Positions 3,001-64,000 of a DNA stretch of 64,000 bases are shown here, one piece after another. Each line of letters starts with the position of its first letter. Position 1 is the stretch's first letter. The stretch comes from Catajapyx aquilonaris (taxonomy: Eukaryota), in contig JYFJ02000286.1 of NCBI GenBank assembly GCA_000934665.2, positions 1 to 64,000 on the forward strand, read 5' to 3'. The position numbers were made by a program, and so were the translations under genes. The notes below the pieces were generated by a model. That model was given only the letters and a program-made list of their open reading frames with translations, was not told the DNA's origin and searched no databases.

Positions 3001-6000
3001 TGGGCGGTGGCCAATTATTCGGCCCCTTTGACACCGCCCCGATCCTTTTAATTAGAGGAAAAACCCAGTGCCGAGGATGGGGTTGAGGCAACCTCGACTT
3101 GGTGTGTACTGCATACTTTTAGCAAAGCCGCAGGAGCCTTCTTCGCCGGCGGCCAATTGCAAATGCCGGTCTTGCCCGTATTGATTAGGCTTTCAACTGG
3201 CACTTCATATCCGACGACGTTGCGCAGTTGCCCCCCAACCAAGGGTCTAATTAGCCCCACAATGTACCACCAAAAGAGTTACTACCCCCCTCTTAGCAGT
3301 TCCCTCATACAATCTTATGTGCTGTAGATTTAAGATTATATGCCTGAGGTCAATGACTGGACATTAAGGCGGTTCAACAAACTGATACTGTATATACCAC
3401 CCTTTTTCAAAGGAGAATTTCTCATTAGTCTACTTTCTGGGGGGTTATTATTATATGGCTACATGTCACTGCTGGAAAAAGATCTAAGATTGGCAAGTTG
3501 TTTCTCACGTGAACAGTAATGTGCGTTAGGATTCACAGACGCATCTGACATCAGCGCGGGAAATAAAATCCCCTGGCGTTGACCTAAATTAATTTAAAGT
3601 GGTTAATTATGCACTGCACATTTTGTCGTGTTTATGCACAATGCAATCAATGGGAAAAAAACAGATGCGGGAGAATGTGATGGGGTGCCAGACACAACGA
3701 CAAATCGAATCACTTTACAGCTATAGGCAGTATGAAAGACCATATTGCAGTTTCAAAAACCGCGAATTCCAAAAATTAATTGCCCGCATTTTCTGGCCAT
3801 TCTACCAAGTTTATGACCAGCATACGAAAAAAAAAAAAGCATCAAGTGTTTTCAAATCGATCCTCGTGTTTCAAAGCCCCGAGTATTTACAAGGACCGCC
3901 AATGCATATACCACGAGTGAAATTCAAAACAGTATTGATGTATCCTCTGGCTCGGTTGTCGCATATTTAAATTCTACGTGTTCTCTTTGACCGAACGTCT
4001 GTTAGCATTGGCCGTCATTGCACTCTCGAAACCCTCTAATTTTGCTTGACTGGTGATCGCTGCGTCATCTGTGGCGGCAGTAACTTTTTTTTTGACAAAA
4101 AAAAAGCACACAGTTTGCATGCCATTTGGCATGGACCAGTTTTAAAACAGCGTGTATATTTCATCCGCAACGGTTGTTTGAAGTTGCTCTCATCATTTTT
4201 GGACACCTTGCATAATATGATGTATGGGCCTGGAGTGTTCATGCAACATGGTATATTGGATGCTCGCTCATGTTTTGCAGCCTCAGGAGACGCCACCTAT
4301 AAGTCTCCAGAAGTTTTGCCGAGCTTCGGGATAGAGTCACAGGCTGTCCCAGGATGGTACCTTAATTGAAAATGTCTCAAGAGACAGCTTTCAAAATTCA
4401 GCCACTTTATTGCCTTCCTTTCCAGATGCACTGCCGCCAATGCTGCCAAGCCACGAACAAAATAATTTTTATTACATTTTGCAATTAATTCACACTTATC
4501 CAGTACCACTCGGAAGTACTGCAGATTTGTCAAGGAAGAGCACAAATCAAATGGTTGTTTCTGGGGGGGAATTTCCTCTCCATAATCCGGGGCTCGCAGC
4601 CTCCGGTTCTAATCCTTCCTTTCGGAGTCCGGGGCGACCTCACGATAAATTCATGGCGAGTTCTGGTGCCAGGCTGCGTTTGTTTGTCCCCGAAAAGCAC
4701 GGGTTTCCGGAGAACTTGGCTGACTGACGTGGAAGATGGCCGCTTCCAGATTTTGATTGCTCCTCGACTTCCCGAGGTGTTTGTGGAGCCATTTAAAAAC
4801 ATGAGGGGGATTGGGGGAGGCCCCCGGAAATTCCGGTAAAGGTCCCGACGCCACAATTTCCCATCCGCGATTAAGAAAGCACACAATTCCTTCAGAATGG
4901 AACCTGAATTTTCTCTCCTTTTGTCCTTTCAGACCATTCATTCGGCTTAAATTGAAACTTCCTACATTACGTGGCCTTTATTACATTTTTTTTTTCTCGC
5001 GCTCTCTCGCTCTCTGTTGGGTAAATTTTTTATGCGGTTGTCGGCCCGATGTTTCTTTGCCCCGCGCTTAAACGGATTTTTCGCTGGGCCTGTTTACCTC
5101 TAACTAGAATTCACTTTGAGCCTGAAAAAGTACAGTTATTAACTTTACAGATTAAAACTGCAGGTTCTGAAAAAATGAACGCGGGTGTTGATGCCAAAGT
5201 GTAAACAGTCGTTAAATGTACAGTCCTACAAAGTAAAAAATGTCCAACTCGCCCTGATCTTCAGGGAACGACAGTTTATTAAATGTCTAAGCACAAACGT
5301 GTACACAGTGGCCTACTGTACGCTTTTAGGTCCCACTGCAAAAGCAGCCGACAATTACTGCGATAACAAGTGCGGTTAAGTGTAAAAAATAAACATGTTA
5401 CGCATAAGTTAGACTGTGTTACTGAATCCCACATCAGAAATTATACATTATGCACTTCTGGCAGAGGTTGGGCCAAGGTCTTATGTAAAGTAGAAAAAGA
5501 AAAACCGCGTCGAGGAAAAAGTCTACACTGTAATTTAGCACGGTAATAATGTAGGCGCAGACCTACATTGCTTATGGGTTTCGTACTGAAAGGTACAGTG
5601 CAACATAAGCTTGTCAAAAAGGTGCGCCAGTCGCCTGGAATTTAGGTTCCTTTCGAAATCATACGAAGCAATTGCTCTAGTTGATTGCAAAGATTTACAC
5701 TCAAAACACCCTGTATCGCTGCATACATGATAGATTCAGAACAAGTCTGGCGGTATCGTAAATTCTGACAGTTTTGAGCCCTCAGTATAGCATTCCATTG
5801 CTATATTACTATAGCTGACCCCTAATTGGTGCGGATCAATCAATTCGCCAATCAATCATGCAAAGACGTTGCGTGAATTTTATCTACGCTATATTTAAAA
5901 AAAGGAACAGCCCAATATACACTACATGCCCATGCCTTGAACATGTACCGCATTATGCAATAATGCACTTCCCTTAAGGAAATGTGTGCTTAAGTTACCA

Positions 6001-9000
6001 ACAACCAATGATTACACCTCTCACGTGTCTCGTAAGATACATGACCAGAATATGGCTCCCAGATGTAGCTATATTCTCCTTACTCGCCCTAGTTGGATCA
6101 GGGCTTGTATAACGGATCTAGGGACGTCATATATTCATCATGTTCTCTGAGTGCAGTGGGGTCACTCACATCCAAAACCCAGTAAGCTCATAACTTTCCA
6201 GCTAGCACTCGGAAAATAATGCACATGCGGCCAGAATGAAAGATTGCACCAAGTCTAAAAACCACCGCCACAACTGATCGATGTTTCTGCGTGTTCACAT
6301 TGGTGTTACATCCATATTACACACCGGTCAAGTCCGTAACATGTCGCCTTTTTGCAGGTTTTACATGCTGTCACATCAATTTACCTGTAATGGAAGAATT
6401 GCCGACACGAAATGCTTCTCAAGGTTCGTTTTTTTTTGGTAGTTATTACTACTTCTTTGTTTCTTTTCAGCACAGGCGCTCCTTTTTTATAGGTCGTATT
6501 AATAGCGAGCTGAAAGCGCTTCAAGGGGCAATTGTTCCACGCCAGTAATCTTGGTTTTCAAAAGTCATTCTCACAAGTAAAAGCCTTTTTGACTACAAGA
6601 TTTCAGATATAGACCTACCTCTCACATAATACAACCGTTATCTCCTTCAAATTCGTATATGCTCCAACGCCTAGGTATATCAGCAGAAACGCTTATTGCT
6701 AAGAGGCATTTGAGATGTTTCAGCTTGTGCATCAAGGAGGTGCTCCATTACTCGAGCAGTAAGCCTGTACAGTTAACGGGCAGTTGAAACTCCTCAGAGA
6801 ATAATCTCCGCTGGAGAAAATCGTCCAATCATCACTCCTGCAATCTCTCCCTCAGCTCTCATTATCCTCACTTCTTTTCCTTCATCCCTGGAACGTGCTT
6901 CCAACTCCAAAGGACCAACTACCCCTTCCAAAAAAAAACACACAAAAAAATCAAATTTTCCATTCAACCACTCTATACATACTTCGCTAAAAAAAAGTGG
7001 CTCGTTTTGTTAACAGTGCGCATGAGATGTAAACATGTGCTAATGCCACAACGGAGTTGGCACGCAAATTTAATTCATACACAACAATGGGCGGTAACTT
7101 CCAGTTAACACCACACTTTCCGCTCAAATGGCCCATTTTTGGCCGGCGCAAAAATGATGCCCCGCAATGAAACTAAGTTGATCACGACGCAGCCACCCGT
7201 AATGACGATTTCCGGAACCCCGGAAAACGAGGTCCAGCAAACAAAACACGCGCTATCATCCCCGAAACCCGGCCACACGCTGTAAAGAATAGTTCATTAT
7301 ATTTTTTTCCCCCCGTCGGAGGGGGGGATGGACTATAGGTCCACAGGGTGTTGCTACAAGACCCGATCGAATCCCGATCCAACTAAATCGAGAGGCATTT
7401 CATTAGCAGGGGGGGACGCTAACGAGCGCTCAATGCCTCACACATATGACTTACACGTCCAGCGTATGTGTGTATGTGTGTGACATGTTCTACCCCCCAC
7501 CCCCCTCTAATCAAAAGCACGTCCCGCCATAAAAATAGAATGGGGGGGGGGGGGGCCTCCCCGAAAAAATGTTTGCTCATATTTCGGCCCACAATGGCTC
7601 CGGTCCCAGGCCTCTCAACCTTCCCACGTTTTATGCCATTTATTATTAATTCGACCCCCCACCCCCCATCCCATCCTAGCCGCCCCCTCGCCTAACATGA
7701 GGAGGTGGGGAGGCAAGATTATAGCTGATTGATCACACGTCCAATTAATTTTGATGCATGTGGCCCCCCAGATTCAGGGGTGCATTACTGGGCCTGCGCA
7801 TTTGTTACTAGACGATTATAGGATGGGGGCAGGGCTATTTTTACCCAATAAATCCCCTTCGCACGGACTTATTGCATAACGCAGTAAATTAGTAATTCCA
7901 TTCTGCTTTGCTGATGTCTGATATGGGAGACCAGAGCTATGCATTACGTAACTTTTTAGTGATAATAGACACGTCAGGTTGTGTTATTGCGGTGTTACAT
8001 CCTGAAAACGAGGTCTTACCGCGTATTTCCGTATTTATATATCGGGCTGGTATGTATGCTGCGTTCCTACTAAAGTGTTCCAAGAATGTACCAACGGGCT
8101 TGGAAGTTGTCTATAGTATTACAACTTGGTGTTTAGTTGCTGAGTGGTGTAGTTCGGGATCTAACTAGACGGATTTGGTTCGAACTTGGACCAATGCATT
8201 TGTTTATGTTTTGAGTGATTTTTCACTCAAGATTCTCTATGAAAGTTTAAAAAAAAGTCCAATGCTATATTTTTGAAGGTTTTTCTGGGTGGTAATTATG
8301 GAATAATGTATAGGGATATCGTCAAGGATATCGTGGCTTTTCCACAATTTTACGGTAATGTGCACACTGTAAGCTCGGCTATCCACATGTTTGATTAGTT
8401 ACGTACTTCCGTACCTTCAACCAGGATGTTTATATGCCGGCAGCAAGGTAGGATAATAAGTGAATAATGCATATCTCAGTAAGTGTTCAGAAGAGTCCGT
8501 ATCCTCATTTTACAAAAAAAAAATCCAGAAAAAAAAACAATATAGATCCGGTAGTGGCCAATAAGCAAGACTAATGATAAGAAAGACACAGATAGCATCC
8601 TACAATTGATTCCTATTCGCAATCCCTTTATTGAAGGGTACTTTATAATCACTGTAACTGTATACATTTGAGAAACTTGTGGGCTAAAAATGGCAGCATC
8701 CAGAAGTGCACTACTGCATTCTAGAGAACACTGATTTAAGGGATAACAACGTTCCTTGTCATGTTCTCCTGCTAAAAAATTCTAAAAATAAAGCCAGGAT
8801 TATCCCGAGGAACAAATCCAATCACCCCCAGCTGAGGTCGCTTTTCCTCGCCATATTGATTGATAAAGGCGTAATATGATCACCCGGAAATATAGGTCAT
8901 GGCATTTCCCGAAAACCCGGCACCGTAGAGTTTATCCACCCCACCAAAGTAGATGCGGGTAAGGAATCTGGTGAATTATGCAGATGACTGGAAGAAAGTT

Positions 9001-40900: not shown

Positions 40901-43900
40901 TCTGAGGTGACACCAATGATGTTGCCACCTTTTTCCTCCAGTAGTCCAATGGAGCCGATGTAATGAACTCCAGGTGGTACATATATTGTGCCACCAACAC
41001 TTATTTCCTCGAGAGCTGCTTCCAAGCTAGGGAAAGTCCTGCCAAAATTACAAAGCAAAATGAGGGAATTTGCACTTCAGATATTCAAGTCATCTCCAAG
41101 CTGAGTACAGGAAGTCCCTAGTTTACGAACAACCCAACATAAGGCAATCCATTCTTACGGACGGGCTCCCAAGGCGCCCCATAAGGATAATTTTCCCTTC
41201 TTTCCCTTCCTCACTTCTGCATATGTTGACTGACACCAAATTCAACATATACAGTATAGCCTGCCGCAGGGGTATNCCCCCCCCCCCAGGTAAAAATATA
41301 TAGATTTTATACGGTACCACAGGGTTCATATTCGAAACAGAAACATGTGCAGCAAGGGAGATTTGAATGGGTGTGTATTTGATGAAATTGGTAGCCCTTT
41401 TTCCAAAAAATCATGAATTAGTAATTTCTAATGCTATTTCAAACTGTCCTGCATATTGTCGCGGTCCAGACAAAATTGCGCCGCGGTCCGCCAGTTCAAT
41501 AGCCCTGGCCTACTGTATAATAAATAAATAATTAATTTGGAAACAGCTTTGTTCCATGCAAGTGAACAAACCCATACAAATATGATGTAAGTGGTTCGTT
41601 GGCACTGCATCTTTATGCTAGCCTCTATTATTATTGCCATATATACAAATAAATTGTTCATCAGGGATCTGAGTTATGTGCAAATCCGACTTACAGGTGT
41701 TCCCAGAAACATAACCCCTTTCATAGACAGGGACTTCCTGCATATTACAAAAAATGTAGTGACAATCAGAATGAGCTGTAAGTTCTCCACACCAAGAATG
41801 TACAGGAAGTTTCGCCATTACCATAGTAAAACCCTAATTACCTATGAAATGTTAAAACAAACACAGACTGCCTTATTTCTCCTTGTTCATCACTTTCCCT
41901 CTCCATCTTATCCATCCAATAAGCGAGATTCTTGTTATGTGGGTAAAGCAGAAAATTAATTTCAAATTTCGAGCCCAACTTGCCAATGGACTAACCATTC
42001 CTTTATGTGTGTCATCATATCATAATTATCATTTCTAATTGTGTGTGACCAAAGAACATAACTTACGCAATGCTAGGGTTGCTGTCACTTAGGCCATCAC
42101 CGCTGCCTGGTACAGCTGTAATTGTCTTCTTGCACATGGTCATAAACTGCATCAAGTCCTCCATCTTACCCTGCTTCCATACGAGGGCGGTCTGGAGCAC
42201 CATCTTTTCTTCTCCCCTTGCTACTGCCCACCCTCCCCATGGCAGCTGGCTTTCAAGAAGTAGCTTTCTTATGTCTGGATTTTCCATGAACCTCAGCCTG
42301 TTCTTCAGATCCTTCTGCTGCATGTCCAGCTCCAACAGTCTTATGGAGTATGCTGTATCACACTCTGCTGCTGTCTCATAAACTTCATTCTCAAACCCCA
42401 TCCCTTGCACAGCCTGTGAGGAGTAGGGAAAACATAACAACAAATTGCCATGCATTAGGTAATTACTCCAAAAGAAAAAATTGCCTTGACAAAATATTCC
42501 CTCCTTGAAAATGTGTACTGTTGTCAATGCAGCATATAACTACAACTGACCATTTTCTACTATGATCAAGGCAGATTTGCCTCTCATCAACCTGCAGCCT
42601 CTGAAAAAGGCCTGCTGCTTCAAGTTAGTATCAAATGAAATATTTGCTACACTTCACTTAGATACTCACCCTGACCCATATGTAAAAAATTGCACGTCAC
42701 TAACAGTAATGGTTTATGTAATCAACAGTAACATGATATGAAAAAGTACATTCCAAGCAATTAAGACAATTCATATTTCATACCGATATCTTGTCAATCT
42801 CAGTTTGATTTATCCTGGCCTGCCGCATCTGCTTCACTATTTTGTGTGCAACGAATTGCTCAATGGAGCCATTGTCCAGGTCATGCAGGCTGCAATGATC
42901 AACCAAAATTACTATTATACATACCAACTGGATCATGTAACTACTCACAATTGGATCCTCGACTCCAAGTAAGTTCCTGTCCAATCCTCACACCTGTCAT
43001 ACTCATCCCATGGGTACCATATGTAGGAGTAAAAGAACCTGTGAATCAATCACTAATTACTGCTCTGTTACACTCTTTGCACACCAATAATGCCAGTATA
43101 ATATTACTAATTCCAAGTCCACCTCATAAGGGTTTATTTCATTTATGCTACCAGATCCACAAGAAAATGTCAGACATCTCACATGTCCACTCACAGTCAG
43201 ATTCTCACGATCTCTGTACTGTACAAGATTGGACACTGAACAACATTGCATCTCTTACCATATTACGCTGAAAAGAGTGGCATGCCAGTAAAAATGCAGT
43301 GAACAGCTTCGAGAAAACATGAATCTAGTGGCTACACAGGGTGAGGAGAAACTCGTGCCGAATCGCCAGGAAGACTGATAGTAGCTACTCGAAAAACTAA
43401 TATAGGGATGTGCAATTAGTTTTGGGTGTAGTTAATGCAAACGGCGTCTTTAAAGTGTAGAGGGCCAGGTGGTAAAATATGAAGTAAAAAGACAAAGTGC
43501 TCAGGTGTCACACCTGGATTCTTACTCTGACAGGATTTGATCACCTATTGCACATGGACGATGCGTTAGGGGACCAGGGCCGGATTATTCGTAGCCCTCG
43601 AGCTGACTTTTGCTTCTTTGAAACTGGACGAGAACGCGGAGTGGATGTGATGTCACAAAACTTTAAAGGCGCCGTACACATTACCTAAGCTACGGTGGGT
43701 TTCAGTTGTGTCTGGCAACCCTACTTTCCGAATGCCAGAAATCCCATGCAGTCTTGAGTCTTTTCCTGGGTGGATTATGGGCAGCAAAATGAACGCAGGA
43801 CCCCTCGACCTCCCTGCAACTCTCTGCTGCAAGTCTGCAACTTTGTGGGCGGGCACTCATTTTGCTGCCCTATACCAGCATATAATGCAGTATTACAAAG

Positions 43901-44883
43901 AGCAGCTCTACCTGAATAGATCAAGGGCACGTGCAATGGTTTCTGCACAAGGACCACCCTTGGGCTGCATTTCAGTAGGATAAAGGTCCAGCAAATCTGC
44001 TATCCGGATCTTCTGGTGCCTCTCCAAAGCCTGCTTCACTTCAGGTGAGTCCATGTCAGGCAACATGTCAGTAGTAGTAGGGAGTGCAGAGCAGTCCATG
44101 TTCTTCTGCAGATCATTAGTCCCCTGGCATTTCTCATTATCCTTGCTGCAGCTTGGTGTCTCATTCATGGGGATGACACTTGCACGAAGGTTTTCATAAT
44201 CCAGTTTCGTCACTTCCACCAGCAGTGGCTGGGAAAAGAATCATATTCAGTATAAATTTACTGAACAGCTTAATTCCCTTAACTTTCTACTGGTAAAAAA
44301 TACAAAGTCACATTATTTGATGTTATCTCCATGTTAGCAGTGTTCAACACTTGTATACTCCCTACCGAACTGAAACCCTAGTCATATTTCCCCTGAATTC
44401 TTAGGAAACATTCCGCTATGTTGGTTGGCAATTATTCTCCTCCAGTCAATGTGGGTGTGACTGCACTGATTCTCAACATTCGTTACTCACTTCTTTCAGG
44501 AATATGTTTGCACAGCGGTCTCTTCCTGGCGCCAGCACACCCTTCCTCTTCCAAATGGCAAACCATCCGCCTGGTTCAACCAACAGTTGCAGGTAATCAG
44601 CCCACTGCAGCCTGACCTTATCCCCAGGAATGGGATGTGAAGAGTTGCCAAACACCACAGTAGCCAGTTCTTCTAAGCGCTCCTGCAGGTCCACAAATCC
44701 CATCTGGAAGGGTCGTGGTGGGGCCATGGCACGGTGGGGAGGTCGGAGGCCAGCTGGTTTGTCCGACCCTTCCGGGCAGTCGTCACACGAGTCCATTAAA
44801 TCAAGGTCACTGGGCTGTGTCGGGCTACACGCTGAGGCCATCGGGGGTGGCCGGGGCACGGTGCCCACCTCGTCTTCAAGCAT
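37911..44883 (-). CDS. SHCBP1: SHC SH2-domain-binding protein 1 / Nessun dorma-like (centralspindlin partner, C-terminal pectin-lyase-like beta-helix), ~651 aa, 8 coding exons
   Basis: Hand-spliced exons (minus): 44883-44491, 44228-43912, 43038-42949, 42889-42784, 42413-42067, 41038-40879, 39786-39341, 38007-37911. All introns are GT-AG with consistent phases. Family-type motifs: VEPGGWFAIWK, ALDLFRFFYSYIWYPWDE, LENP-like MENPDIR, TIYVPPGVHYI and PbH1-like repeats (GILVLPGGTLKL…GVHLKEGATLEA). TAG at 37911-37913; AATAAA at 37828-37833 (minus). The last exon is the least certain. Confidence 0.85.
40506..40593 (+). repeat. Imperfect (GA)n / GGGAGA purine microsatellite
   Basis: Near-continuous G/A tract in an SHCBP1 intron. 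Confidence 0.9.
41355..41507. mobile_element. Partial second copy of the same hAT MITE family (SHCBP1 intron)
   Basis: Shares ~120 nt (ATTTGAATGGGTGTGTATTTGATGAAATTGGT…AATGCTATTTCAAACTGTC) with 47757-47845 and ends in the right TIR CAGTTCAATAGCCCTG. The left end was not found; an N lies nearby at 41276. Confidence 0.8.
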
Positions 44884-45328
44884 CACGGGTGCAAGCTAAA
44901 GAAGAGGTCGACTCCTATTGTAAATCAGCACTGCCAGTCGCAGCGCCTCTGCTTACCTACACCAGGTGATGTTCCCACTGTGAGACTGATAGAAGCGAGC
45001 AGCGCAGAAGAGTGTTGAGGAAATCCTGAAATGGAATGAAGTATAAAGTGTTCGTTGTTGACAGTTGGCGGGAACAGCACCGATGGTTGCCGGATGACCC
45101 TACGGAAGTGACGTTATTAGTTACTAGTGTGATCAGTTTAGGCCTCCTTCAATCATTTAATTATTTCATAAATCAAAAATAAATGGAGAAAAACGAAATG
45201 AAAAGGTTGCTTTTTAATTCTGCGTAGGACCCAATATGGCAGGCAACATGGCGGCGCACTGGTTATAAACATTTCCATCGTCTGATTTCTCAAACGAGGA
45301 TTAATATCAAGTTAATATTCAATATCAG
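44884..45328. promoter_or_regulatory. Bidirectional promoter region shared by SHCBP1 and CHCHD7
   Basis: The divergent ATGs are 445 nt apart in a locally CpG-containing region. Motifs: E2F-like TTGGCGGGAA (45065-45074), ETS-CRE composite CGGAAGTGACGT (45103-45114), YY1-like CAACATGGCGGC (45244-45255). Confidence 0.7.
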
Positions 45329-46676
45329 ATGCCCCCAATGAGTCGTGCGGACAAGCTGAGGAGTGACTACAACAACCCGTGTCTCAAGGTCTGTTTATGA
45401 GCATCAATCCGCAGTTTTACGCTTGTGTTACTGCAGGGAAAACCTCGCTGAAGATGCTTCTATATCTTTGAATCATTACTTTGATCGCCTTTTTAAAAAG
45501 CGCTGTCCTTTGCCAGGAGCAAGAACTGTCCTATAAATGCATGGAAAAAAATGGCTACGATCGGGATAAGTGCTTGGATTACTTCAGGAACTACCGCAAC
45601 TGCAAGGAATTTTGGGTACTGCATATGGAAAGGACATTGTGATGTAATAATGCGATGGTTGGAGCTGAAGTTATGATGCGAATTTTTTCACTCGAATTCG
45701 TGAGCCTTGTCAGGGAGGAAGGAGGAACTATGGATATTGTGTTTGTAGATTTTCTTACAAGTTATAGAGATGCTTTGTATTACATCTCAAACTAAAGAGG
45801 ATGCTCAAAATTGGGAAACCTGCTTCCTGATGAGATTTGAAAGCTTGTGCATAACCTTGTACCAGTGATGAGGCAGCTCTTGCACCCATCAGTGTTCATA
45901 ATGGTTGTCAACATTGACTCGAGTCTTTCATATTATCAGATCACCCTGCTGACTGCCTTCAGAAAAGGTGCTGTGATGACATTCCATTTGCTTATGTGAA
46001 TTAAATGTGACATGCTTGCGTACTGCATCGCCGATCCCAACTACAAGAGTACAGTAATGCTCACTAGGCTACTCCAAGCCTATTAGTTACATTATTTTTA
46101 ATCAGTTACCATTGGGATGGAGTATGCATAATAATGTAATGCTTCTTGGATTCCTCTGAATTTCACACATCTTTTCATGTCAAATGTAGACATCACTGAG
46201 CAGGGCTTTGAAATGACATGTAGTTCACCTGTGTAAAGAATGAAGCGGCTCAAGTATTGAATGAAGAATTATCCATGACTTCTGTTCCGTTCCTTACATA
46301 AGCAATCTGAAAGGTAGTAGCTCTGAGGTGCAAATGAAAGTAAGTGTTCTGCATATCATTGTAATATCCACTTTCATCTGGTCCGATATATTTCTCATTG
46401 TCTAGAATCAGAGTAGGTCTACAGATGCCCTCTCAATCATTGTGTACTTTAAAGTACAACTTCATCATCACTATTGCATTACAATTCCTGTACCGTACAG
46501 TACTACATTTAAATGGATTACAGTGAATGTAAGTGTACCACTTTTTTGTTCATCAGAACCAAGTGAAAGCTGAACGCAGGCTCAATGGAATCAAGCCCTA
46601 CTTACCACCACCTGAAGAACGACCCACTGCCAAAGCGCACTATGCTAAGAAGTTTGGGGCATCTAAAGGTTCTTGA
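45329..46676 (+). CDS. CHCHD7: CHCHD7 / COX23-like twin CX9C mitochondrial intermembrane-space protein, 92 aa, 3 exons (absent from the ORF track)
   Basis: Exons 45329-45388, 45517-45615 and 46557-46676, all phase 0 GT-AG. Product: MPPMSRADKLRSDYNNPCLK|EQELSYKCMEKNGYDRDKCLDYFRNYRNCKEFW|NQVKAERRLNGIKPYLPPPEERPTAKAHYAKKFGASKGS*. It has two CX9C motifs and the NPC…YDR…CK.FW…RR.NG.KP pattern of CHCHD7. AATAAA at 46686-46691. Confidence 0.92.
45691..45760 (+). mobile_element. Possible LINE (CR1/L2-like) reverse-transcriptase relic in CHCHD7 intron 2
   Basis: Translates LEFVSLVREEGGTMDIVFVDF, which resembles the LLEF…LDEG..VDVIYLDF motif preceding SKAFD in non-LTR RTs. Short and diverged. Confidence 0.3.
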
Positions 46677-47342
46677 ATGGTGTTAAATAAATAGCCATAT
46701 AGTCAATGTCACTTCTGTCTTATATTATTAATTATTACTTCAAGAGGTTTTTTACAGCTTGCAAGTCTTTCTCTTTCCTTCTCCCGCCCACAATTACCAC
46801 TCCTCCACAAAAGAAAATTATAAAAACATGGTGAACGTGTGCCTTTCACCCTGACAGTGCCACAGACCTGGCAAAAATTGACAAATATATACGAGACATA
46901 AAACTTCATTAATAGAAAACTTATGGAATGAAATTATGAACAGTAACAAAGGTATGTATGTACACGTGCAACTACATACAAGACGGGAGAGAGAGAACAA
47001 AAATAATTACGAAGCAAAATTACAAGGCATTATATTAATTACAGGTAAAGCTTGGAGAGACTCCAATAATAAACTAATCATTTTTAAAAGGTACAGCCTG
47101 AGTCCAAAAAAAATTGACTCCACCTTTTTTCATGGCATATGGACAACACATGGTAATCAAGAGAATATTCACCCCATAATAATCGAAAAATCATCTCATA
47201 ATGAATTGAAATTAAATTAAACCCCAGCAAGAAATTTCAACCCCCAACATTTATCCTTTCCCTCCCAAATTTCAGCATTTAAAAAGCAAATTCTTGCTTT
47301 ATATTTTCTCTCTCTTGATTAACATGAGTTGTCCGCTACGAG

Positions 47343-50300
47343 TCAATCGCTCTGCTGTTTGATCCGGAAGCAGTCGATCCGGAAGTGTCTGCACATCTGG
47401 CGCACCTGCAAGGGTGAAATAGTGTAATAATGGAAGAGGTGTAAGCTATTTACAATTCACATCACTTCTGCAATATGTAGAGTATTATGGACATAATGTT
47501 ATCCTGATCAACACCGGTACTCTTGAAAACCAGCAGCAGTAAATGATGTTCATTTGTAAGAGAGTAGGCCAGGGCTATTCAACTAGTTTATGTCAAGGTC
47601 CCCCCCCAGCCCTTTATGACGTCCTGTACAGGTGCATAGGCAGAAAACATTTCGGAGGGGGGTGCATTTCGTAAGCACAAGGTGAACAAGCCGTAAAGCC
47701 CGGTGCAGGTGATTTTTTTTTTGTTCAAGGTCACACATGCTTAGGTGAATGTGGGAAATTTGAATGGGTGTGTATTTGATGAAATTGGTTGCACTTTTCC
47801 CAAAAAATCAAGAATTAGTAATTGCTAATGCTATTTCAAACTGTCATATATATCGTCGCGGTATGAACCTGGACCGCAGTTCACCAGTTGAATAGCTCTG
47901 GAGTAGGCACTAGTGCCATAACACCAGTGAATAAAATGACTCAATTTCGTTTTTGCAGGCACTTCTGTGAGTCAAGCTGGCACTCCTCTATACTTTAATA
48001 CAAACTTAACATAATTCCAAGCAAGCTAAAATAACTCACCACACAAATCCCATAATGCACATGTGCTTGCGTGGCAAGCACAGTGAGAGCATAAAGAAGT
48101 CCTCTCTCCCATTTCTCGCCTATGGGCAAGCTCAAGGAAAGTGCCACTACCACTCCTAAGGGCAGAAGTAGCCAATTAAGCCCCTCACATCGTGTGGAGC
48201 TCATCTGGGCCACAATCAAGCGGCAGCATATGTGAGAGAAGAGGGTTCCGACTAGTAGGTAGAAGCAGCGAGGCTCTCTGTCTATAATGTTTGAAGGGGA
48301 CAGGAGAACCCAGGAGAGGGTGAGCAGAAAGAGAACTGTTGCAGAAACCAAGGGAAGGGTAGCCTCCCACAGGGGGCGCATCTTCCCCGTGCCATCCCGG
48401 TAAGACCTGTTTAAGGTGGGTCAAAAGAGATTATCATTAGTATCACTGGGGGGGGAAAAAAAAATGCATAGTTTTGCATTGAAACTGGGCTGCATTAAGC
48501 TAATCTCTAGTGCCTGGAATCTGCCTCTTCCTCATCAACTTGGCAATACAAAGTGACTAATGGAAACAATTTGCAACTCTCTATTTCTGAGCTGGAGAGA
48601 AATCAGACATTTATAAAGTAGTGCAAACTTAGATTTAAGTAGCCAAACTTGAAAATGGCAAGTGTTCTGTGAATGTGAAATGACTTGTGAAATTGACACC
48701 ATAAGTCCCAAGTCCATACAAGGTTTGATTTTATAAACTCAACTTTCAGGTTGCAAGACTGGACATCAAGACCCATTCCATATGAAACCAAACAAGTAAA
48801 GAAGAATATGACCTTGATTACTGATGTAAAAATGTGAACAATTAATTTCAACAATTCAAGCATAAAAACAACATTTACATTTGCATCCTACACTTGTTGG
48901 CATTTTGACAGCACATGTAGGGCAGCTGGAAAAGATTGCATAACTATGTGCAAAATACCTGTGAATACATCTTAACGAGTTAATAATAGTGACGTCAGAA
49001 AGCAAGGTTCACTTCTGCCATTATACATGTACAACTATAGAACTTGATTATGTGTAAATCATTACAACTAATAGAGACAGCTTTGTTTTCAATGGGTTCT
49101 TACTTCCACACATTGTAGACGGAGATGGGTAGACTGGTAGCTAGTGACCCTGCATAAAGCATGATTTCCATGAGCATCCCAGCATTCACACCCCCAGGAA
49201 GAGTTATTTTCCAGGCCTGGTAGCCAAATATCAAGGTCAAGACGTAGAGAACAAAAGTTGTCTAGGAGGAAAGGCCAAAATTAGTTATGGTCCAAAAGCA
49301 TTTGAATCATTTCACAATTACGCTTCTTCATCCAAATTCATATTAAAATATCAGCCTGCTAAAAGAATAGTAATCAATAGTCACACTCACCACCATGGCA
49401 AAGTCATACCCCCATGGAAGGAAGAGAACTCCAGTGTTGTATTTCTCCCAGTGCGACAGTACAAAGTTGAGATGCACATTCCACAGACAGAAGAACAAAT
49501 GCAATGGAGGGATGGAGAAGTCTGTTTCTCGACCAAACACCGAGTACAGTCCTGTGGGTATGAGCACAGTGGTCCAGCTGTCCAGCCCATGGTCAAACAG
49601 CTCTCCAATGGGACCAGAGGTCCCTGTCCTCCGAGCCTGCTTTCCATCTATGCCATCTGTGTGAACAAAGATGTTGGGTGAGAAGTGTAGAGTGCGAGGT
49701 CATTCTTCAATTACATCATCTGCATGTAACCATGTAATTCAAGGGTTATGTAAATTACAGGAATATGATCAAATTCATAAAATAAGTCTGAGCAATAAAA
49801 CAATTTCAGATTCATATTTTGAATCCACTATAGCTAGGTCAAGTTTTCACTGCAGAGATTATTCAAAGTTGAGTGCATCAAAACAAGTCAAGATTGTGTC
49901 CTAAAAATCCCAAGGACATATTTAATTTGTTCTGAAGAGCCCTGCATGACTAAATTTGTAATGTGTCAGCATGATCACCATTTCTTTAACTAGCTGCAGG
50001 CAAATGATACTTTTAAAAATTGCGACCTCTGTGAGATCTAAACCATGATAGGGCTCTGGGCTTCAGTAAGACACCTTTTTATCACGTCCTTATAATTTAT
50101 ATCAACACCCTGGTATCATTACTGATTAAGGAACACTTTCTAATTTTAGCAGTAATTTAAACTACACTCGGAGTTTGCAATTAGTTTTCCCAATGTGCAA
50201 AAGTGAAGTAACCGTTAGGCCTGGGTGAAAATTTGAAGATGCACCACATGGATTAGCATCCTTACCAAGGTTCTCCACCACAACTTGCCTTATACCTCCT

Positions 50301-53300
50301 AGTTACAAATCCTAGTGATATACAGTAATGCAGGTAGAAGACAACAATATAGAAATGCAATCAGAACTTTATGCATGCACCCTACAGTCTGGTTCTCCAC
50401 TTTTTGGAGGGTGATGAGCAACATCACATTATCAACCACATGGCAGCTCATAGTCTGAAGCTGCAACCCAACCAACCAACCAACCAACCAAAACAATGCC
50501 CATATACCCTGGTAACTGGATATACTGGATAACTGGAGTAAGGCCCATACACACAGGCGGTCGACGGTTTTGGTCTTTGGTCGCATTGACGACGCGGACC
50601 AATCAAGACCCATGTAAACAAGCTCAACACTTGTGTTGCGCTTGTTGATAGGTCCCCGGCGTCAACGCAACCCAAGACCAAAACCGTCGACCGCCTGTGT
50701 GTATGAGCCTTAACACACTGTTGGAACTCAACATAGTCCTGAATGTTGCTGAAGAATTTTCTCATGTTCAGAATTAGGGCCTTGAAAGGTCAAAGTTGTC
50801 AAATGAAGTAGGGTAATCATAACAACTGCATTAATGAATGAGAATTTTAATTATACTGACCTAGTGTATGTGCAAGGAAAAGTGTGAGAGCAGCTGTGAA
50901 CCACACCCAGTTGGGTATGCGCGCACTCTCAGGAGCAGATGTGGTGGACGCATAAAAGTGATAGTCATAGTAGCAGAACAGAAAGAAGTTGGACACGGTG
51001 AACACAAAGCCGGAGAATGTCAGGAGGTTGGGGGCCACCCAGAGGGGACACAGCTGCAAGTCAAGAAGAACATGATTAGTAATTATTAAAGAATGAATTT
51101 CTAGGTTCTAAAAACAGTCAAAATAAGCTCTTAAATAGGCAGTAAAAATCTAGCAGATCCTATTTTATTTTCGTTCCTATACAACCTACTCTTGGCCATA
51201 GATTTAGTAGCACATAGGCCCGTATCTTCGACGTCTCGCGCAAACCTGCGGGAGGAGCCATAATCTTCTAGAGAAACTTTCCAATGGCGTTAATCCCTGA
51301 CGGGGAAAGAACCCCAGGAGTAGTTAATTTTGTTACTTAAAAATGTGATGATTTTTACTCTCGCTGGCAGAACCCTGTTAACTCCCTTCTGCGAGCGCCT
51401 CCCGCAGGTTTGCACGAGACGTCGAAGATTTGGGCCTAGGAAACTAGCAGTTGTTCCATATTTTCATTGGATACGAGGTGACACTTGTCTGCCACCACAC
51501 CTTTATACAGTGGAGCATCGATTATCTGAACAGAGTCTGCCCAGGGGGTGTTCGGATAACCGATCATTTACGAAAATAATTGTACCGGTGTCATAGGAGC
51601 AATATGAAACCAAGAAAGTGATATTAACCACAAAAGTGTATATTTTCTGTCACAGGCACATCTTAAAAATACTGTACTATCGGACGCAAAAAGAATGTCC
51701 GGAGAGAGTCTTCGTTCAGCCTGGTGGAGGCAAACCATTGCACAGATGTGTACACACACACTTGTGTGTACGTCCGTGCTCATCTGCTGAGCTTTTTCCC
51801 TCCTCCCTTAGCTACCCAGGTGCAATGGTTTGCCTCCACCAGGCTGAACGAAGACTCTCCCCGGACATTCTTTTTGCGTGCCTATGTACATATACCTTAC
51901 ATTCCTTACATGAAGTAGTCCTACAGTTTAGGGGAGGAAAAGGCCACATAGCGTGTTTTTTTTTTCTTCTTCTTTTTGCTGACCCAAAAACTTTTGGTTA
52001 ACCGATGGTTCGTTTGATCGGTGTTCGGATAATCGATGCTCCACTGTACATTGAAAATGACCTGCATAAAATTAGAAATCCGTTCTCTAGTAATTATTAT
52101 CTAATAATAATGGATCCCCTATGACAGGCCTTTTCAGGGGATCTCTTTTTCAACACCCAACTTTATTCATTGCCTGCACTGCTGATTAATTATGGAAGAA
52201 ATTGAAGAATCTAAATAGAATCCATTCGAGCATAAAGGAACCCTTTGAAACTTTTCCCAGGTGATAAAATCGTCCATCAGACCCAGGGATCAATCTCAGG
52301 ATCTCAGGTGGGTCCATCACTAATGAAAACCCTGGGTATGGGCCGAGCACAATTAATATCAGTGTCCATAACTTAACTTACAGCATCGTTGTCAGGTAGG
52401 TGTTGATGCTTTTCCATATTCTCTGGATTGGATTGTCACCTGGGTAATATTGAGCCAGTCATTTCTAAAAGACAAGCCTTATAACCTTCTACAAGTCAGG
52501 GCAAATTAATTATGAACCTGACAGCACAATTTGTCAACGTGAATGTTCCTTAAAGATTTAATCTTATAGGATGGAAACTTTATAATGCAAAAGATAATGC
52601 AGTACCAACTGATTGTGCCACATGCAGGTTTCACCGTATAAGCATCTGTAACATTTGATAACCCTAGAGCATTTCTCACTGTAGGAGAAATAGGTTGAGA
52701 GTTCTCCAACAAAAGGGCATTATGAGCCTGAGAGATGAAAGAGTAGGAATTGCGTTACATCTATGCAAAGTTATGTCCAGTTTTGATTGCAGGATTCTAA
52801 AACTGTAAAGTTTAAGCTCTGCAATTTGCCTGAATTTAAATCCTGATATGTACAAGCATTCATTGCATTTTCATTGCAGTTCTGGAGAGCGCATTAAAAA
52901 TACTATAACAATGTTATCACTGAGATAAGTTATATGATTGTTTCATTTAGAGTTTTAGACCAATACATGCTACAGCTATTTTATCTTGCAATATAGTTTA
53001 GTGGTAACTGTAACAATAATAATTGCAAACACAAATATTTATAATACACATTTACATGAATATTACTATTATTCCATATCATATGAATATTTCCATATAA
53101 CCACCAGTGTATATTATTTTCATCTGTACACAATGAACCATCTCATGTCACCATCCCTAGGGCATGCCTGTTACGTAGGTACAACATACAACCTCCCTAC
53201 TCCCAATGTTATCAACAATTATGATCATCCTTTGCACATGTGCAAAGCAACACATTTGAGGTGACTACTTATGATTCACGTGCTACAATGGCAAGGAAAT

Positions 53301-54508
53301 CCCAATTTAACAACAACCAAGGGCAAACAGATAGCTGACAAAGCTGACAAGACAATATTGTGCGGGACTTTGCACCAGGATGCCAATTACCTTTTCTAAC
53401 TCTTATCTATTATCCTAAGAGAGGTCAATAGTTCTCTTAAGATGCTGAGGTTCAAAGTCTAAATGCAATCAAATGAACATGTGTAAGTAAGGAAAATAAA
53501 TAGAGCAGTCCTTTGCATGCATGCAAATATTACGATGAGGCCAGCAGGATAAAATACAAATTTCCATATATGTTAATGGGGATATGTTTGCATACAAAAC
53601 ATTTGATGTAAAATTTGGATTACGCAGGTGCAGTTTATAAACTTCACTTCCTAGTTGATAAATATTTATTGCCTTACTTATTCACCCTTTTAATGACTCA
53701 CATTTTTAAATTCAATTTGAAGCCTTTTTTTCTCCAAATGTTACTTCAAGAAATTCAAATTTTTTAAAGAGGCAGGTTACTTCTGCTGATTCTATTTATC
53801 AAAAAGTGACAATGAGGTTGTGAGAGTCAGATGGAAGGTTCTAGGTTCCATTCATGGGGTCAACTGTCCTGCTGTGTTTTGCTTGTTGTCACAGTAAGGT
53901 AGAGTAATTTTTAAACCCCAACAATTGCTGAGATGGGCATCCTGGTTCTCTCCTCTCCACAAAAGGCAAGGTTAAATTGAATTTTAAATGTTTGCGATGA
54001 CAATCCATGTATATTATGTGCACAATAATATGCAAAAACAAACATGCAATTAATATCATCAGCTACTCCCCATTGCAATACTTTGCCACAAAAAACCAAC
54101 TGGTAACCTTCCATTGCTTCACTTGCCTCAGCTTGGATCACCATGAGAACCTGTGTGGCATGTCTGAGTCACCTAGTGCCTCAGAAATGTCTGTGGTGGT
54201 TCTGACTAGAGACCAAAGCTAGGTCAATCCCTCCGCACAGGATGTAGGTGTGGCCTGCGGTGTATATTTACCTTGACAACTGCGTTCCAGAAAGGGTGCA
54301 TGACATACTGGCTGAGTGGGCTGGTGTCCACTGCACTGTACTGCAACAGGAATAGACGAGACGTGATTATGCAGCCCATTACATGACCCGAGTGCATGGG
54401 CTACAGGACCCACCCCCTTCCCCCATTAGTCTTATTGCGCGGCATAATATTCACCTTGTAGTGCTCGAATCCGGAGAGGTGCTCCTGGGAGAGGTACTTG
54501 TAGTTCAT
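47343..54508 (-). CDS. SELENOI: Ethanolaminephosphotransferase 1 (SELENOI/EPT1; CDP-alcohol phosphatidyltransferase), 389 aa to the TGA or 397 aa if the TGA is recoded (end 47319), 7 exons
   Basis: Exons (minus): 54508-54455, 54340-54272, 51053-50861, 49656-49391, 49261-49104, 48406-48040, 47405-47343. All GT-AG with consistent phases. N-terminus [46 protein letters not shown]; catalytic CDP-AP motif [44 protein letters not shown] (EPT1-type); [14 protein letters not shown]. Confidence 0.95.
47570..47900. mobile_element. hAT-type MITE in the last intron of SELENOI
   Basis: TIRs CAGGGCTATTCAACT…AGTTGAATAGCTCTG. Perfect 8-bp target-site duplication GAGTAGGC at 47562-47569 and 47901-47908. Confidence 0.9.
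50542..50709. mobile_element. PIF/Harbinger (Tourist-like) MITE, near-palindromic
   Basis: ~36-bp TIR GGCCCATACACACAGGCGGTCGACGGTTTTGGTCTT / AAGACCAAAACCGTCGACCGCCTGTGTGTATGAGCC with imperfect pairing further in. Flanked by TAA and TTA. Confidence 0.85.
51215..51438. mobile_element. MITE, probably PIF/Harbinger-like
   Basis: ~40-bp imperfect TIR TAGGCCCGTATCTTCGACGTCTCGCGCAAACCTGCGGGAGG / CCTCCCGCAGGTTTGCACGAGACGTCGAAGATTTGGGCCTA. Confidence 0.85.
51508..52046. mobile_element. Tc1/mariner (pogo/Tigger-like) MITE
   Basis: TA-CAGTGGAGCATCGATTATCTGAAC … GTTCGGATAATCGATGCTCCACTG-TA: a 24-bp TIR with TA flanks. Confidence 0.88.
51684..51879. mobile_element. Foldback MITE or long inverted repeat nested inside the pogo-like MITE
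   Basis: ~60-bp nearly perfect inverted repeat ACGCAAAAAGAATGTCCGGAGAGAGTCTTCGTTCAGCCTGGTGGAGGCAAACCATTGCAC / GTGCAATGGTTTGCCTCCACCAGGCTGAACGAAGACTCTCCCCGGACATTCTTTTTGCGT. Confidence 0.8.
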
Positions 54509-55390
54509 CTTGGCTTCGTCTGCTGGGTGCTGCCCTGACCGCCTGCCGCAAGCCCTCGCCCTCTCCTCTCCCCTCTCCTACCCTCCTTTTCCTTCTCCTC
54601 AGCGAGACCGTCGATGATTTAACACTTTCCGGAAGCACACGCACCGAGAGTGCTGCACGGAACTGCCGAGCGGGGGAGTGTGTATCGTGTGTGGGGGATG
54701 GGGGGCTGATGGGAGGCGGGCAGGCTGGCAGGGTGGAGGAGGAGGAAGAGGAAGGAGGAACGAACGGGCAATGGAGGAGGGAAGAAAAAAACAACAGGAA
54801 AAGCGTAAAATAAGGAACGGACAGAACGGGAAGGGATGCGTCCGAATTCATGGGGCAGCGTACGAATGCCTACGACGTGTTGGCGGGAAGGTTCCAGTGC
54901 ACAGATATTAAATGTAGTAAAACTAGGCAGTGCAGCATGGGGAGCGTCAATGTCGTGTATCAAGATTTGGCGCCACTCTCAGTAAGTATTTTATTTTCAT
55001 GCAGACATTGCCACAGAAAAGCTCTAATATTCACCAATGGACTAGAGCCAATGTCATGAACATGGTAATGAACATCCAGGTGCGTTTGTCAGGACAAAAT
55101 ATATTCAGTCACCATGAAGTGAATGTTCAGCATTGGAATTTTATTTGTCACAGGTCCCACTTACCCATCAGGGAATGTTACATAAGTTTTATCCAGATGG
55201 GTTTATCTTCTGCCATGTCATGCTGATTTGGTGGCATGTGCTATTTAACAGACCATTTGGCCCAAGTGTTCAATCATAACCTGCTTGAGCAAGTCACTTC
55301 TGGAAGCATTTTCATTGACACCTGATTGCCTCTGGTAATAATTACAAGAGAATATTGAATGTATCCCCTACATGCCTTAATTAGAAGAGC

Positions 55391-60735: not shown

Positions 60736-61169
60736 CATTGCATGGCTATTATTTTCCATTTAAACTTGTGAGGGTAACAAATCAAGTCAGTTTCAAGGAA
60801 AGGGTACCAGTGTTATCAGAGGTTTTTAAAAGTGCTTCTTGGTTTAATTTACAATGTGTTCAAGTCCTTGAACACAACACAAAGTTTCGAACTTTAGAAC
60901 ATGTATAATTTATAAATAAGTGTTGTTATTGGTATAGTTTTGTATTTGATAAATTAAGGTAAAGCTCTTGGATCAAATAATGCCGAGATGTAGACCAATA
61001 TTAACAAAGTTTTGCCACAGGAACTCTGCCAGCCCCAATTCTAATGTTTTGTGACATATTCCTTTCCCATGCCATTTATGAACAGTTAAGAAGGGCCGTA
61101 GGTGTGTAAGCAAGAGGTGCATTTTTATAAATTATGCTAACTGTACACTTATTCTCTTTTTTTTGCCAG

Positions 61170-64000
61170 TCCTCTGTGGACATGGGTGGGGAGAAGATAT
61201 CTGACCTCTGGCTGAGGATTGACCGTCACCACCTGGCATATTTGCAAATGGAAGAGAGCCCACAGAAATTAGAGGAGCGCCAGCTGCTGGAAGAGTACAT
61301 CCGCGAGTACCTTTGCTCTGTTCCACACGAACACAAGTTTTGCACTAGGGAAGCGACGCAGGTTCTTCGCCGAAGCATAACAGAGAAGCCAAACTTCAAC
61401 TTTTATCGGGCCCAGACTGCATTTGACTCGATTGGCGCCTATGCCATGAACCTCATATCTCAGCCATGGCGGAGGGAGTTTAGGGAGATCCGAATGTACT
61501 GTGGGTTTTACCAGCATCAGGTGGAGGCCCACCTGGTAGATGCTCGCCTTCTCTTTGGACCTATGGGTTACAGGGTCCAAGGACAGAAGATGATATTAGA
61601 GGGGCCTGTGGATCCAGAGAAGGTGGCCATGGTGTCCAGAGACTGCCTCATTGCCAATGTTGAGTGCCAGGTGAGCAAGCAGATACAATTTAGGAAAAGC
61701 AACTGACATGCAGGTCACTTGCTTAATGAGATGAAGCATATGTGTTTTCATGGGTCAAGCAGTAAGGATAAGATGCCTCCACACTCAATTTAAGGGTTTA
61801 CTTTATGCAGTAGTCAGACAAAATGATTTAGTCAAATAGCCTGAGTCTGGTTTATATTATGACTCTAACCTGTATTGGGAAAGTGGTTCATGTGAGATTG
61901 CCTTCCATGGGCTTGGATAAAGTAGGCTACTTAGGAAAGCTTTGTGTCACCTTTCTATCGTGGCTTAATTTGACAAATTATGCGTCAAAGACTATTACCA
62001 TATCACTTGATGAAGTCTAGGAAGGTTAAAAAGCATTGCAGAAGAATTTCTAGTGTGTGTGACCAGTTAGATTGGTTTTCTCATTCTTCATTTCTCATAA
62101 ACCTGTTATTGGAAAGATAGAGAAAAACTATTTAGTGTCTTGCCTTTTCAACAGATCATGTGTATGATATGGGAGGAGCTGTCACCCCAGTACCCCTGCA
62201 CTGTGCAAGATGTGCTGGAATTTCGTCAGAACCATGTAGGTGATGCTACTGAAGCTGTCCGCACTATGTCTTACTATTTCCGCCAGAGACAATACCACCA
62301 GATGGTGATGCAGAGCCAGCATCATTTGTACTCTTCCATGGCAACCCCAACAGCTCCCCCACCAGTTGCCAATACCCTTCCAAACCACTATCAGTTTGAT
62401 CCCACCTACAACAATCCAAACCTTCCATATTACTGCACCATGCGCCACCCATCACAACTCTACCCAGCTCCACAAGTGTCTCCATTTTATCCTGGTGTGT
62501 CACCCTTCTACCACCACCATCAGATGTCTCCAGCAGCCCCTCAGTCCTCAACACTAATTGGTGCAGGGCCAAGGCAGCATGTTCCAACAGAGAGGCTCAT
62601 TGACGTGGATGGACCAGAGCAGCCATTGGTTGCACCCAGTAGTGTCACCAGGCAGACTAAAGTAGTTCATGCACCAAAGAAGGATGAATTTGCACCTGAG
62701 CCAAGTTTGCAGGTAAGGGGAAGATCAGTTTTAATTTTCTGATATGTGACATAATTGAAACTTTTTGGAATGTTGGAGGTAGGAGAAATGAGTTAATATG
62801 CAGCAAAATTGAGATGTTTTGGTTTTGACTAGGTTCAGGCAAAGGACCGCACCAAAGTTCGTAATGGGGATTGGTCTGATAGCTGGAGCTACGTATACAG
62901 TGGACTGGAAAGTCGTGGATATAGTAAGGATCTGGGAGATAGGGGTGACTTGCTGGCCAACCAGGGGCGAACTGTGACTAGAAGCCACACCAAGAGCCAA
63001 GTTCAGACAAGTAATGGCATTTCTAATAACAACACACCACTTCCCAGGAGTGTACTTGAGCTGCAGGATACTCTTAAGTATGTGCTGGAAACTATTTAAG
63101 TGCGTGAGACCTGTACGTAACACACTAATGAGTTTAATTGTTGTTGGATAGGAGGGAAGCACTTGAGATTCCAAAGACATCGCATATAACTGCACCTGGA
63201 AAAGCTGTCCCTGTGGTTGTTAAGCCAACTTCAACCTCTACTAAAGCTACATCTGCACCAAAAGAAAAAGTAGATGATAAGCACATTGAGTTTATGAAAG
63301 TTCTTAACAGCTTTGAATCAGGGATCAAGTTTATTGAAGATGAGTCTCCTGATGAGAAACCATCTGCAACTGCAATTGGAATTGCATCTGCAACGAAAAC
63401 CACAGCAGCTGTCATTGAAAATCGCAGTTCTACTTCCATTGGATCACTGAAGGTATGGTTGTTAACTTTATTGCAGCAATTTTGTTGGTGCATTGTAATA
63501 AATTTGTTACGGTGGCATATTTAAAAACTGATAGTTGTAGGAATTTGTGAATTGTTGATATGGGCAAAGAAAGAGTCAATTATCAATGAGTCTTAAAAGT
63601 ACAGTAGCACAGTAACGTGAAGTGTCATCTTTTCTCTCTCTACATTATCAGGTGACAGCAGCAGATTCCAGTTTGGTAACACCTTCTCAAACAGACAGAA
63701 TCCGTGAGGCCCGTGTGGTGACCATGCCTCGCGATCCTCCTCGTGTTTCATCATCATCTAAAGATGCACCACAATCTAGTCAGCACAAAACAATGAAATT
63801 ACCACCAGGTAACATCGCCAGGTGGAAGTGCCCCAAATGCACTTACCAGAACACTGAAGTTTGCCCGACATGTGTTGTGTGTGACACACATCGACCCAAG
63901 GAAACTTCTCCAACTTCACCTAAATCACCAGTTACAGCAGCTACCCCTGAGACACCCAAGCCTGTCCCAAGTGCCAAAGAATCAAGTGATGCCACAGATG
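61170..64000 (+). CDS. tamo: Tamozhennic / SPATA2-like protein (N-terminal PUB-like domain, C-terminal RanBP2-type zinc finger); 3' end lies beyond the window
   Basis: Exons 61170-61670 (first internal ATG 61182), 62155-62712, 62833-63077, 63152-63452 and 63652->64000, with consistent phases. PUB-like segment AFDSIGAYAMNLISQPWRREFREIRMYCGFY…MGY…LEGPVDPEKVAMVSRDCLIANVECQ. Tamozhennic-type motif SWSYVYSGLESRGYSKDLGDRGDLL. RanBP2 zinc finger WKCPKCTYQNTEVCPTCVVC at 63823-63882. The upstream first exon is uncertain. Confidence 0.85.

Follow-up and report, generated by a model that had tools for sequence, protein, structure and literature searches.

A conserved UGA-C stop codon followed by a short coding-like tail in pancrustacean EPT1, a candidate for SECIS-independent readthrough

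EPT1 makes phosphatidylethanolamine and plasmalogen precursors, and its vertebrate form, SELENOI, is among the least understood selenoproteins. In insects, programmed stop-codon readthrough is said to have been described by Dunn and colleagues in 2013. The present work concerns the EPT1 gene of Catajapyx aquilonaris, which lies on the minus strand of a 64,000-nucleotide stretch of DNA (contig JYFJ02000286.1 of assembly GCA_000934665.2, positions 1 to 64,000, hereafter the window). Its reading frame closes with a UGA followed by C, at about the place where vertebrate SELENOI carries its selenocysteine (Sec) codon, and a tail of seven codons separates this UGA from a second in-frame stop. The comparison of this end with those of eight related loci makes an ancient UGA-C readthrough, independent of any selenocysteine insertion sequence (SECIS) and giving, as a minor isoform, a C-terminally extended EPT1, the probable explanation.

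Several described systems can be compared with this locus. Among the candidate readthrough genes of Drosophila and Anopheles, the older cases are enriched for TGA and for a following C, according to the available text of Jungreis et al. (2016, PMC5100048). EPT1 shares with insect programmed readthrough the UGA followed by C, the coding conservation between the two stops and the lack of a detected SECIS, and differs from it by a very short tail (6-7 codons) and by the apparent maintenance of this tail across crustacean-, springtail- and hymenopteran-like lineages, that is, over a deeper distance than that between fly and mosquito. A second system is the SPS1-UGA of Hymenoptera and some Paraneoptera, which, as presented in the available part of PMC4561486, resembles EPT1 in having a conserved SECIS-less UGA aligned with the vertebrate or ancestral Sec codon, and is translated in Sec-less insects by a readthrough that does not insert Sec. 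The UGA of SPS1 is, however, internal, descends from a Sec codon and is overlapped by a conserved stem-loop (HRE), whereas that of EPT1 is the normal terminator, lies in no predicted structure and, if the arthropod and vertebrate sites are linked, would have evolved in the direction from stop to Sec. In mammalian systems, UGA-CUA-GUA and UGA-CUA-UAC permit an extra elongation step (bioRxiv 10.1101/2021.04.18.440353, available text); the arthropod context has the same UGA-CUA and then continues with UUA-GCC-GAC.

With vertebrate SELENOI (PMC3316567 and PMC13134290, as far as their available texts go), the arthropod locus shares an orthologous enzyme of the PF01066 family, an acidic end at about the same place and a short extension after the UGA. 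In contrast, vertebrates use a SECIS and insert Sec at this codon, whereas no SECIS was found in the arthropod loci, and alignment A3 shows a one-residue difference in tail length. Literature searches, to which the supplementary gene lists that may contain the fly orthologue did not belong, found no link between EPT1 and readthrough, and a term search in the available text of PMC13278127 gave no mention of EPT1.

The stop codon and the tail that follows it

An earlier note, made from the letters of the window, had read the end of the gene as an in-frame SD-TGA-C followed by LVADNSC and a TAA on the minus strand, with a product of 397 amino acids if the TGA were decoded. Translation of the last exon confirmed this arrangement (Table 1), and the seven-exon gene model gives a protein of 389 amino acids at the first stop and of 397 with read-on. 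In a single sequence such an open stretch means little, since a stop would come that early in about 1 in 3 random sequences, and its significance therefore comes from comparison only.

A profile built from 8 EPT1 proteins (alignment A1) retrieved 80 metagenome loci, and the C-terminal end of each was inspected. Eight of them have the same type of C-terminus as the window. According to their best named protein match, one is ant-like (L062, 82% to Temnothorax EPT1), four are nearest to springtail EPT1 of the Orchesella group (L001, L071, L072 and L074), two are Daphnia-like (L003 and L005, 78-79%) and one is barnacle-like (L021, 80% to Amphibalanus). The window protein matches those of termite, locust and springtail about equally well (51-54%), and its own lineage is therefore unrepresented among these relatives. 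The nine sequences all follow the pattern GA[T/A] TGA CT[A/G/C] [T/C/G]T[A/T] GC[C/G] GAC nnn nCn TG[T/C/A], corresponding to a protein end of the form ..[D/E]-stop-L-[L/V]-A-D-[N/S/D]-[A/T/S]; the ant-like locus, for example, reads TGA CTA CTT GCC GAC GAT GCA TGC TAA. Codon 7 encodes Cys and is directly followed by TAA or TAG in the window, in the two Daphnia-like loci and in the ant-like one, and it is itself TGA in the springtail-like and barnacle-like loci. The second stop thus stands 6 or 7 codons past the first in 9/9 sequences, and no alignment is found beyond it.

This ending is distinctive among the loci of the same fetch. The 41 other non-redundant EPT1/CEPT-like loci stop with TGA (19), TAA (14) or TAG (8), and only 3 of these 41 have TGA-C, against 9/9 of the pancrustacean-type sequences; this count leaves aside the 8 loci with the motif, matches above E 1e-5, minus-strand matches, loci with identical tails, and open reading frames stopping inside the alignment or running off the contig. 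Among the 120 best database relatives of the protein, 113 end in D or E and 108 of these have the same tail length, so that the position of the stop is fixed across insects and crustaceans. A targeted search for read-on proteins, with the last 42 residues of L003 and the TGA entered as U or C, scored 16 candidates and gave 3 matches, all of which end at the stop. A scan with the pattern of the conserved block matched 3 genome contigs and 1 viral contig, none with an EPT1 coding sequence upstream, and these matches were discarded as chance. A whitefly-like EPT1 transcript (L029, 63% to Bemisia) ends with ..FKIPYNKH-TAG and has no LLAD tail, and the Bemisia database protein ends with ..FKIPYK; this ending suggests a lineage-specific loss of the UGA and of the tail.

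The conservation of the tail is sharply bounded. Over the 18 nt after the UGA, the mean pairwise nucleotide identity is 0.78 for all nine sequences and 0.73 for five lineages represented by one sequence each, and over the following 60 nt it is 0.26 and 0.25, respectively. In the five lineages, identity at codon positions 1, 2 and 3 of the tail is 0.67, 0.93 and 0.58. When all pairs are counted in the frame of the coding sequence, the codon differences in the tail are 51 synonymous to 47 non-synonymous, compared with 22/86 and 12/101 in the two alternative frames, of which one contains a stop in 8/9 sequences. A Leu of the tail is preserved across the two-base change from TTA to CTT, and Ala is written with all four GCN codons (GCA, GCT, GCC and GCG). 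In every case seen at the DNA level, UGA-C is the stop, and by these measures the tail resembles coding sequence. The comparison across relatives that the earlier note had in view, namely the conservation of TGA and of a downstream coding signal, has thus turned out in favour of both, and two features by which readthrough genes are recognised are present here: a conserved UGA-C and an in-frame, coding-type conservation between the stops, free of frameshifts.

A SECIS was sought by several routes, all run without a positive control. No Rfam SECIS family matched, at permissive E-values, either positions 42000-48000 of the window or its 3' untranslated region (UTR) taken alone (about 630 nt, bounded by the end of a spliced contig), and none matched the 8 loci together or the barnacle-like and Daphnia-like UTRs alone. 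A strict pattern scan gave 0 candidates in the 9 UTRs, and a relaxed scan based on folding gave one GUGA candidate, in L072, which is absent from the relatives of this locus. RNAalifold predicted 0 conserved pairs around the UGA in the nine sequences, and there is therefore no SRE- or HRE-like hairpin. The 3'UTRs of three springtail-like loci (L001, at about 288-314 after the second stop, L071 and L072) have in common a block of about 20-27 nt, CATGCG.TGTCGCCTC. It was considered as a SECIS and rejected, having no AUGA..AA..GA core. The TGA or TG[C/T] at codon 7 of the tail was likewise considered as a Sec/Cys pair and rejected, the sequence past that TGA being unconserved, with next stops 2, 2, 6 and >15 codons away.

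Readthrough and the explanations that compete with it

We consider it probable that the UGA-C of EPT1 is an ancient readthrough stop that works without a SECIS, because this UGA-C is conserved, the tail varies largely by synonymous changes and in one frame only, the searches detected no SECIS, and an ant-like sequence has kept the tail. In the proposed mechanism, the pancrustacean EPT1 UGA would be a programmed leaky stop at which most ribosomes terminate, producing the 389-amino-acid enzyme, while a minority would decode UGA by a near-cognate tRNA as Trp, Cys or Arg. Read-on would add X-L-[L/V]-A-D-x-x-(C) and end at the next in-frame stop, 6-7 codons further on, to give an isoform of 396-397 amino acids. 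The leak would be promoted by the conserved context UGA-CUA-UUA, which in the window takes the form UGA-CUC-GUA, and would require neither a SECIS nor the selenocysteine machinery. UGA-C and UGA-CUA are both described as leaky contexts in the available texts of bioRxiv 10.1101/2021.04.18.440353 and PMC13278127. As for the function of the tail, our guess is that, by changing the C-terminal tail of a membrane enzyme, it may alter sorting, turnover or stability, or contact with a binding partner.

Several points weigh against readthrough. In the five lineages, the tail shows 13 synonymous against 19 non-synonymous codon differences. Its third codon positions are more conserved (identity of 0.58-0.65) than those of the upstream coding sequence (0.36-0.37), which fits an element or a constraint at the RNA level as well, and which is also to be expected under readthrough because the bases after the stop may set the leak rate. 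With only 6-7 codons in the tail and 9 sequences that represent about 5 lineages, few substitutions carry the coding signature, and the metagenome loci are assigned to their lineages by best protein match only. The peptide is not strictly fixed, TGA replacing the Cys codon in 5/9 sequences; none of the 120 best database relatives has a sense codon at the UGA position; and the SECIS searches had no positive control. Finally, that ribosomes actually read past the UGA is deduced from sequence comparison, a circumstance which, together with the shortness of the element, gives some weight to its being an untranslated RNA element.

This last explanation is the main rival, although we judge it unlikely: about 24 nt would be conserved as RNA, as a protein or miRNA site or as a termination context, and the enzyme would always end in ..SD. 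The near-invariant third positions (CTA 7/9, TTA 7/9, GCC 8/9 and GAC 9/9) are in agreement with it, and the block shared by the springtail-like UTRs shows that conserved UTR motifs do exist in EPT1. The variation of the tail is, however, three-periodic and keeps the amino acid, not only in the Leu and Ala codons given above but also in CTA/CTG/CTC, AGT/AGC and TGT/TGC, and the synonymous share is highest in the frame of the coding sequence. Moreover, the block ends in every sequence with an in-frame stop 6-7 codons on, where identity drops to the background level, the first stop is UGA-C, the leakiest type, in 9/9 sequences, and no RNA structure was found with RNAalifold. A true selenoprotein, in which the UGA would be read as Sec by way of an overlooked SECIS in the Sec-competent arthropods (crustaceans, springtails and perhaps the species of the window), is less probable still. 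It is suggested by the conserved UGA at about the Sec site of vertebrate SELENOI (9/9 sequences, with vertebrate proteins ending within one residue of it), by the Cys or TGA seven codons downstream, by SECIS scans made without a control and by the published richness of non-insect arthropods in selenoproteins (PMC4244043, available text). The 3'UTR of the window and the 8 loci gave no Rfam SECIS match, and of our two scans of the 9 UTRs one yielded 0 candidates and the other 1, which is unconserved; no Cys homologue at the UGA position occurs among the 120 relatives, and the stretch past the second TGA is unconserved, which argues against a Sec/Cys pair. The surveys, in their available texts, likewise report no non-vertebrate homologue covering the Sec position and no Cys forms of the extension.

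The ant-like sequence is informative in this respect. Selenoproteins and most of the Sec machinery have been lost in Hymenoptera, whose SPS1 nevertheless retains a SECIS-less UGA that is apparently translated (Mariotti et al. 2015, PMC4561486; Chapple and Guigo 2008, PMC2500217; available texts). Since the UGA and the tail are intact in L062, and a Sec-dependent tail would be expected to decay in such an order, the tail is unlikely to depend on Sec. An ordinary stop codon, with the resemblance to SELENOI and the short open stretch due to chance, would agree with the unremarkable nature of a TGA and seven open codons in one sequence and with TGA being the commonest stop (19/41) in the other EPT1-like loci; the presence of TGA-C and of the tail in 9/9 pancrustacean-type sequences, with an identity of 0.73-0.78 over a background of 0.25, makes this explanation very improbable. 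The earlier note had left the choice between an unannotated arthropod Sec-SELENOI, a SECIS-independent readthrough isoform and an ancestral leaky UGA from which the vertebrate Sec was later recruited. The second of these is the one that our data support, and the first is not supported, in view of the lack of a detected SECIS in 9/9 3'UTRs, of the lack of Cys homologues and of the tail of the ant-like sequence. Overall, the observation is real, and the sequences compared give it much more strength than one sequence by itself could provide.

The EPT1 gene and its surroundings in the window

The exons were placed by tblastn with three arthropod EPT1 proteins, which defined 7 exons between 54508 and 47343 on the minus strand (Table 1). 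The gene is an EPT1 orthologue, within the ethanolamine-specific branch of the CDP-alcohol phosphotransferases, and its best matches bear the name ethanolaminephosphotransferase 1. A spliced contig of 2058 nt from run X5, a run of unrecorded kind whose contig was employed only for the exon joins and the contig end, joins exactly the same 7 exons, bridges the 6 introns (GT..AG in 6/6) and extends the 5'UTR to 54726. It runs unbroken from 47405 to 46713, and no letters differing from the DNA were reported at the TGA. The TGA and the tail are retained in the mature mRNA, unedited and unspliced, and splicing, editing or an alternative last exon is not the cause of the arrangement. The same order of stop and tail is found in L001, L003, L005 and L021, which are intron-less, transcript-like contigs. 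A PDB sequence search with EPT1 returned CHPT1/CEPT1 chains only and no SELENOI entry.

Table 1. Parts of the EPT1 gene in the window, in the order of transcription.
Feature	Position	Strand	Evidence
EPT1 exon 1, coding part, ATG at 54508 (MNYKYL...)	54455..54508	-	tblastn, X5 contig, splice sites
EPT1 exon 2	54272..54340	-	tblastn, joints of the spliced contig, GT..AG
EPT1 exon 3	50861..51053	-	tblastn, X5 contig, splice sites
EPT1 exon 4, CDP-alcohol phosphatidyltransferase motif PF01066	49391..49656	-	tblastn, X5 contig, splice sites, Pfam
EPT1 exon 5	49104..49261	-	tblastn, X5 contig, splice sites
EPT1 exon 6	48040..48406	-	tblastn, X5 contig, splice sites
EPT1 last exon, coding part to the acidic residue (..IKQQSD)	47346..47405	-	translation
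First stop TGA, then C; proposed leaky (readthrough) stop	47343..47345	-	TGA-C in 9/9 sequences
Seven-codon extension CTC GTA GCG GAC AAC TCA TGT (LVADNSC)	47322..47342	-	relatives with LLAD[N/S/D][A/T] and Cys or stop
Second stop TAA, where conservation ceases	47319..47321	-	comparison of 9 sequences
Remaining 3'UTR to the end of the spliced contig	46713..47318	-	X5 contig; no SECIS found

Parts of EPT1 introns 6 and 2-3 (47670-48036 and 50239-52073) have a word depth of 1800-7400 in DNA run X1, compared with about 30 elsewhere, and are high-copy repeats that probably represent transposable elements. At 54838, upstream of the EPT1 5'UTR, one X1 DNA contig lacks 20 bases, possibly an indel polymorphism or an assembly difference. 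On the opposite strand, a small CHCH/COX6B-like gene (45472-45642 and from 46556, +; Pfam E 1e-5, just under the cut-off) lies tail to tail with EPT1, their 3' ends converging; in the X5 contig of this gene, 45614 is spliced to 46556, and the intron between them is GT..AG. A further gene at 61131-63999 (+) combines a SPATA2 PUB-like domain (E 2e-13) with a RanBP2-type zinc ribbon (E 5e-6) and presumably resembles Drosophila tamo and vertebrate SPATA2. At 43153-43213 (-), downstream of EPT1 and within the region of another gene, a weak match to a SNORD75-like C/D-box snoRNA was obtained (23 bits, E 0.01, under the gathering score of 50).

Relation to vertebrate SELENOI and what readthrough would mean

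The ends of database proteins from other groups were compared with the pancrustacean one. A mammalian EPT1 (Castor) ends with ..HFQIYPFSLRKPNSD (..RKPNSD), a bird protein named 'Selenoprotein I' with ..FSLRKPTPD and a hagfish EPT1 with ..FSLKKMNSE, the vertebrate entries being evidently cut at the Sec codon; a spider protein ends with ..FSLKKSVKD and a tick protein with ..FSLKRPPVE. In alignment A3, the mammal, bird, hagfish, spider and tick ends are all acidic and lie one position past the pancrustacean end, and the registers therefore agree except for an indel of one residue. The earlier note had taken the register to be that of human SELENOI: for the vertebrate database proteins compared, the ends match to within one residue. 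The residues after the human Sec are not known to share more with LLADxxC than the first Leu, which speaks against a common origin.

According to the available text of Mariotti et al. (2012, PMC3316567), the Sec of SelI lies in a C-terminal extension that is absent from homologues and has no Cys forms, and a 2026 survey, also in its available text, finds no homologue outside vertebrates that includes the Sec position. The origin of SELENOI is placed by such surveys, in the same available texts, at the root of vertebrates, with a Sec region that has no outside homologue. Gene models ending at the UGA would hide an arthropod tail from surveys of this kind. It is possible, if doubtful on present evidence, that the arthropod readthrough UGA and the Sec-UGA of vertebrate SELENOI are the same ancestral codon. 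An early bilaterian EPT1 would then have had a leaky UGA-C and a short translated tail, and vertebrates would have gained a SECIS and, with it, Sec. A common site is supported by the acidic residue at which, to within about one position, the proteins of vertebrates, chelicerates and pancrustaceans end, whereas an echinoderm protein (P0007) and many invertebrate-like loci, with longer, unrelated ends and mixed stops, argue against a common origin.

If the two codons were the same, SELENOI would have arisen as a selenoprotein from a readthrough stop codon, the reverse of the story of SPS1-UGA, and the statement that no non-vertebrate homologue covers the Sec position would be an effect of gene models that end at this codon. 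Readthrough of the arthropod stop would in itself mean that a core lipid enzyme has, in crustaceans and insects alike, a second isoform missing from annotations, and would be among the oldest readthrough events proposed. It would also join SPS1-UGA as a second instance in which insects without Sec retain a UGA that is translated, and it would offer a route from a stop to a Sec codon, in which a leaky UGA with a useful tail comes first and the SECIS later.

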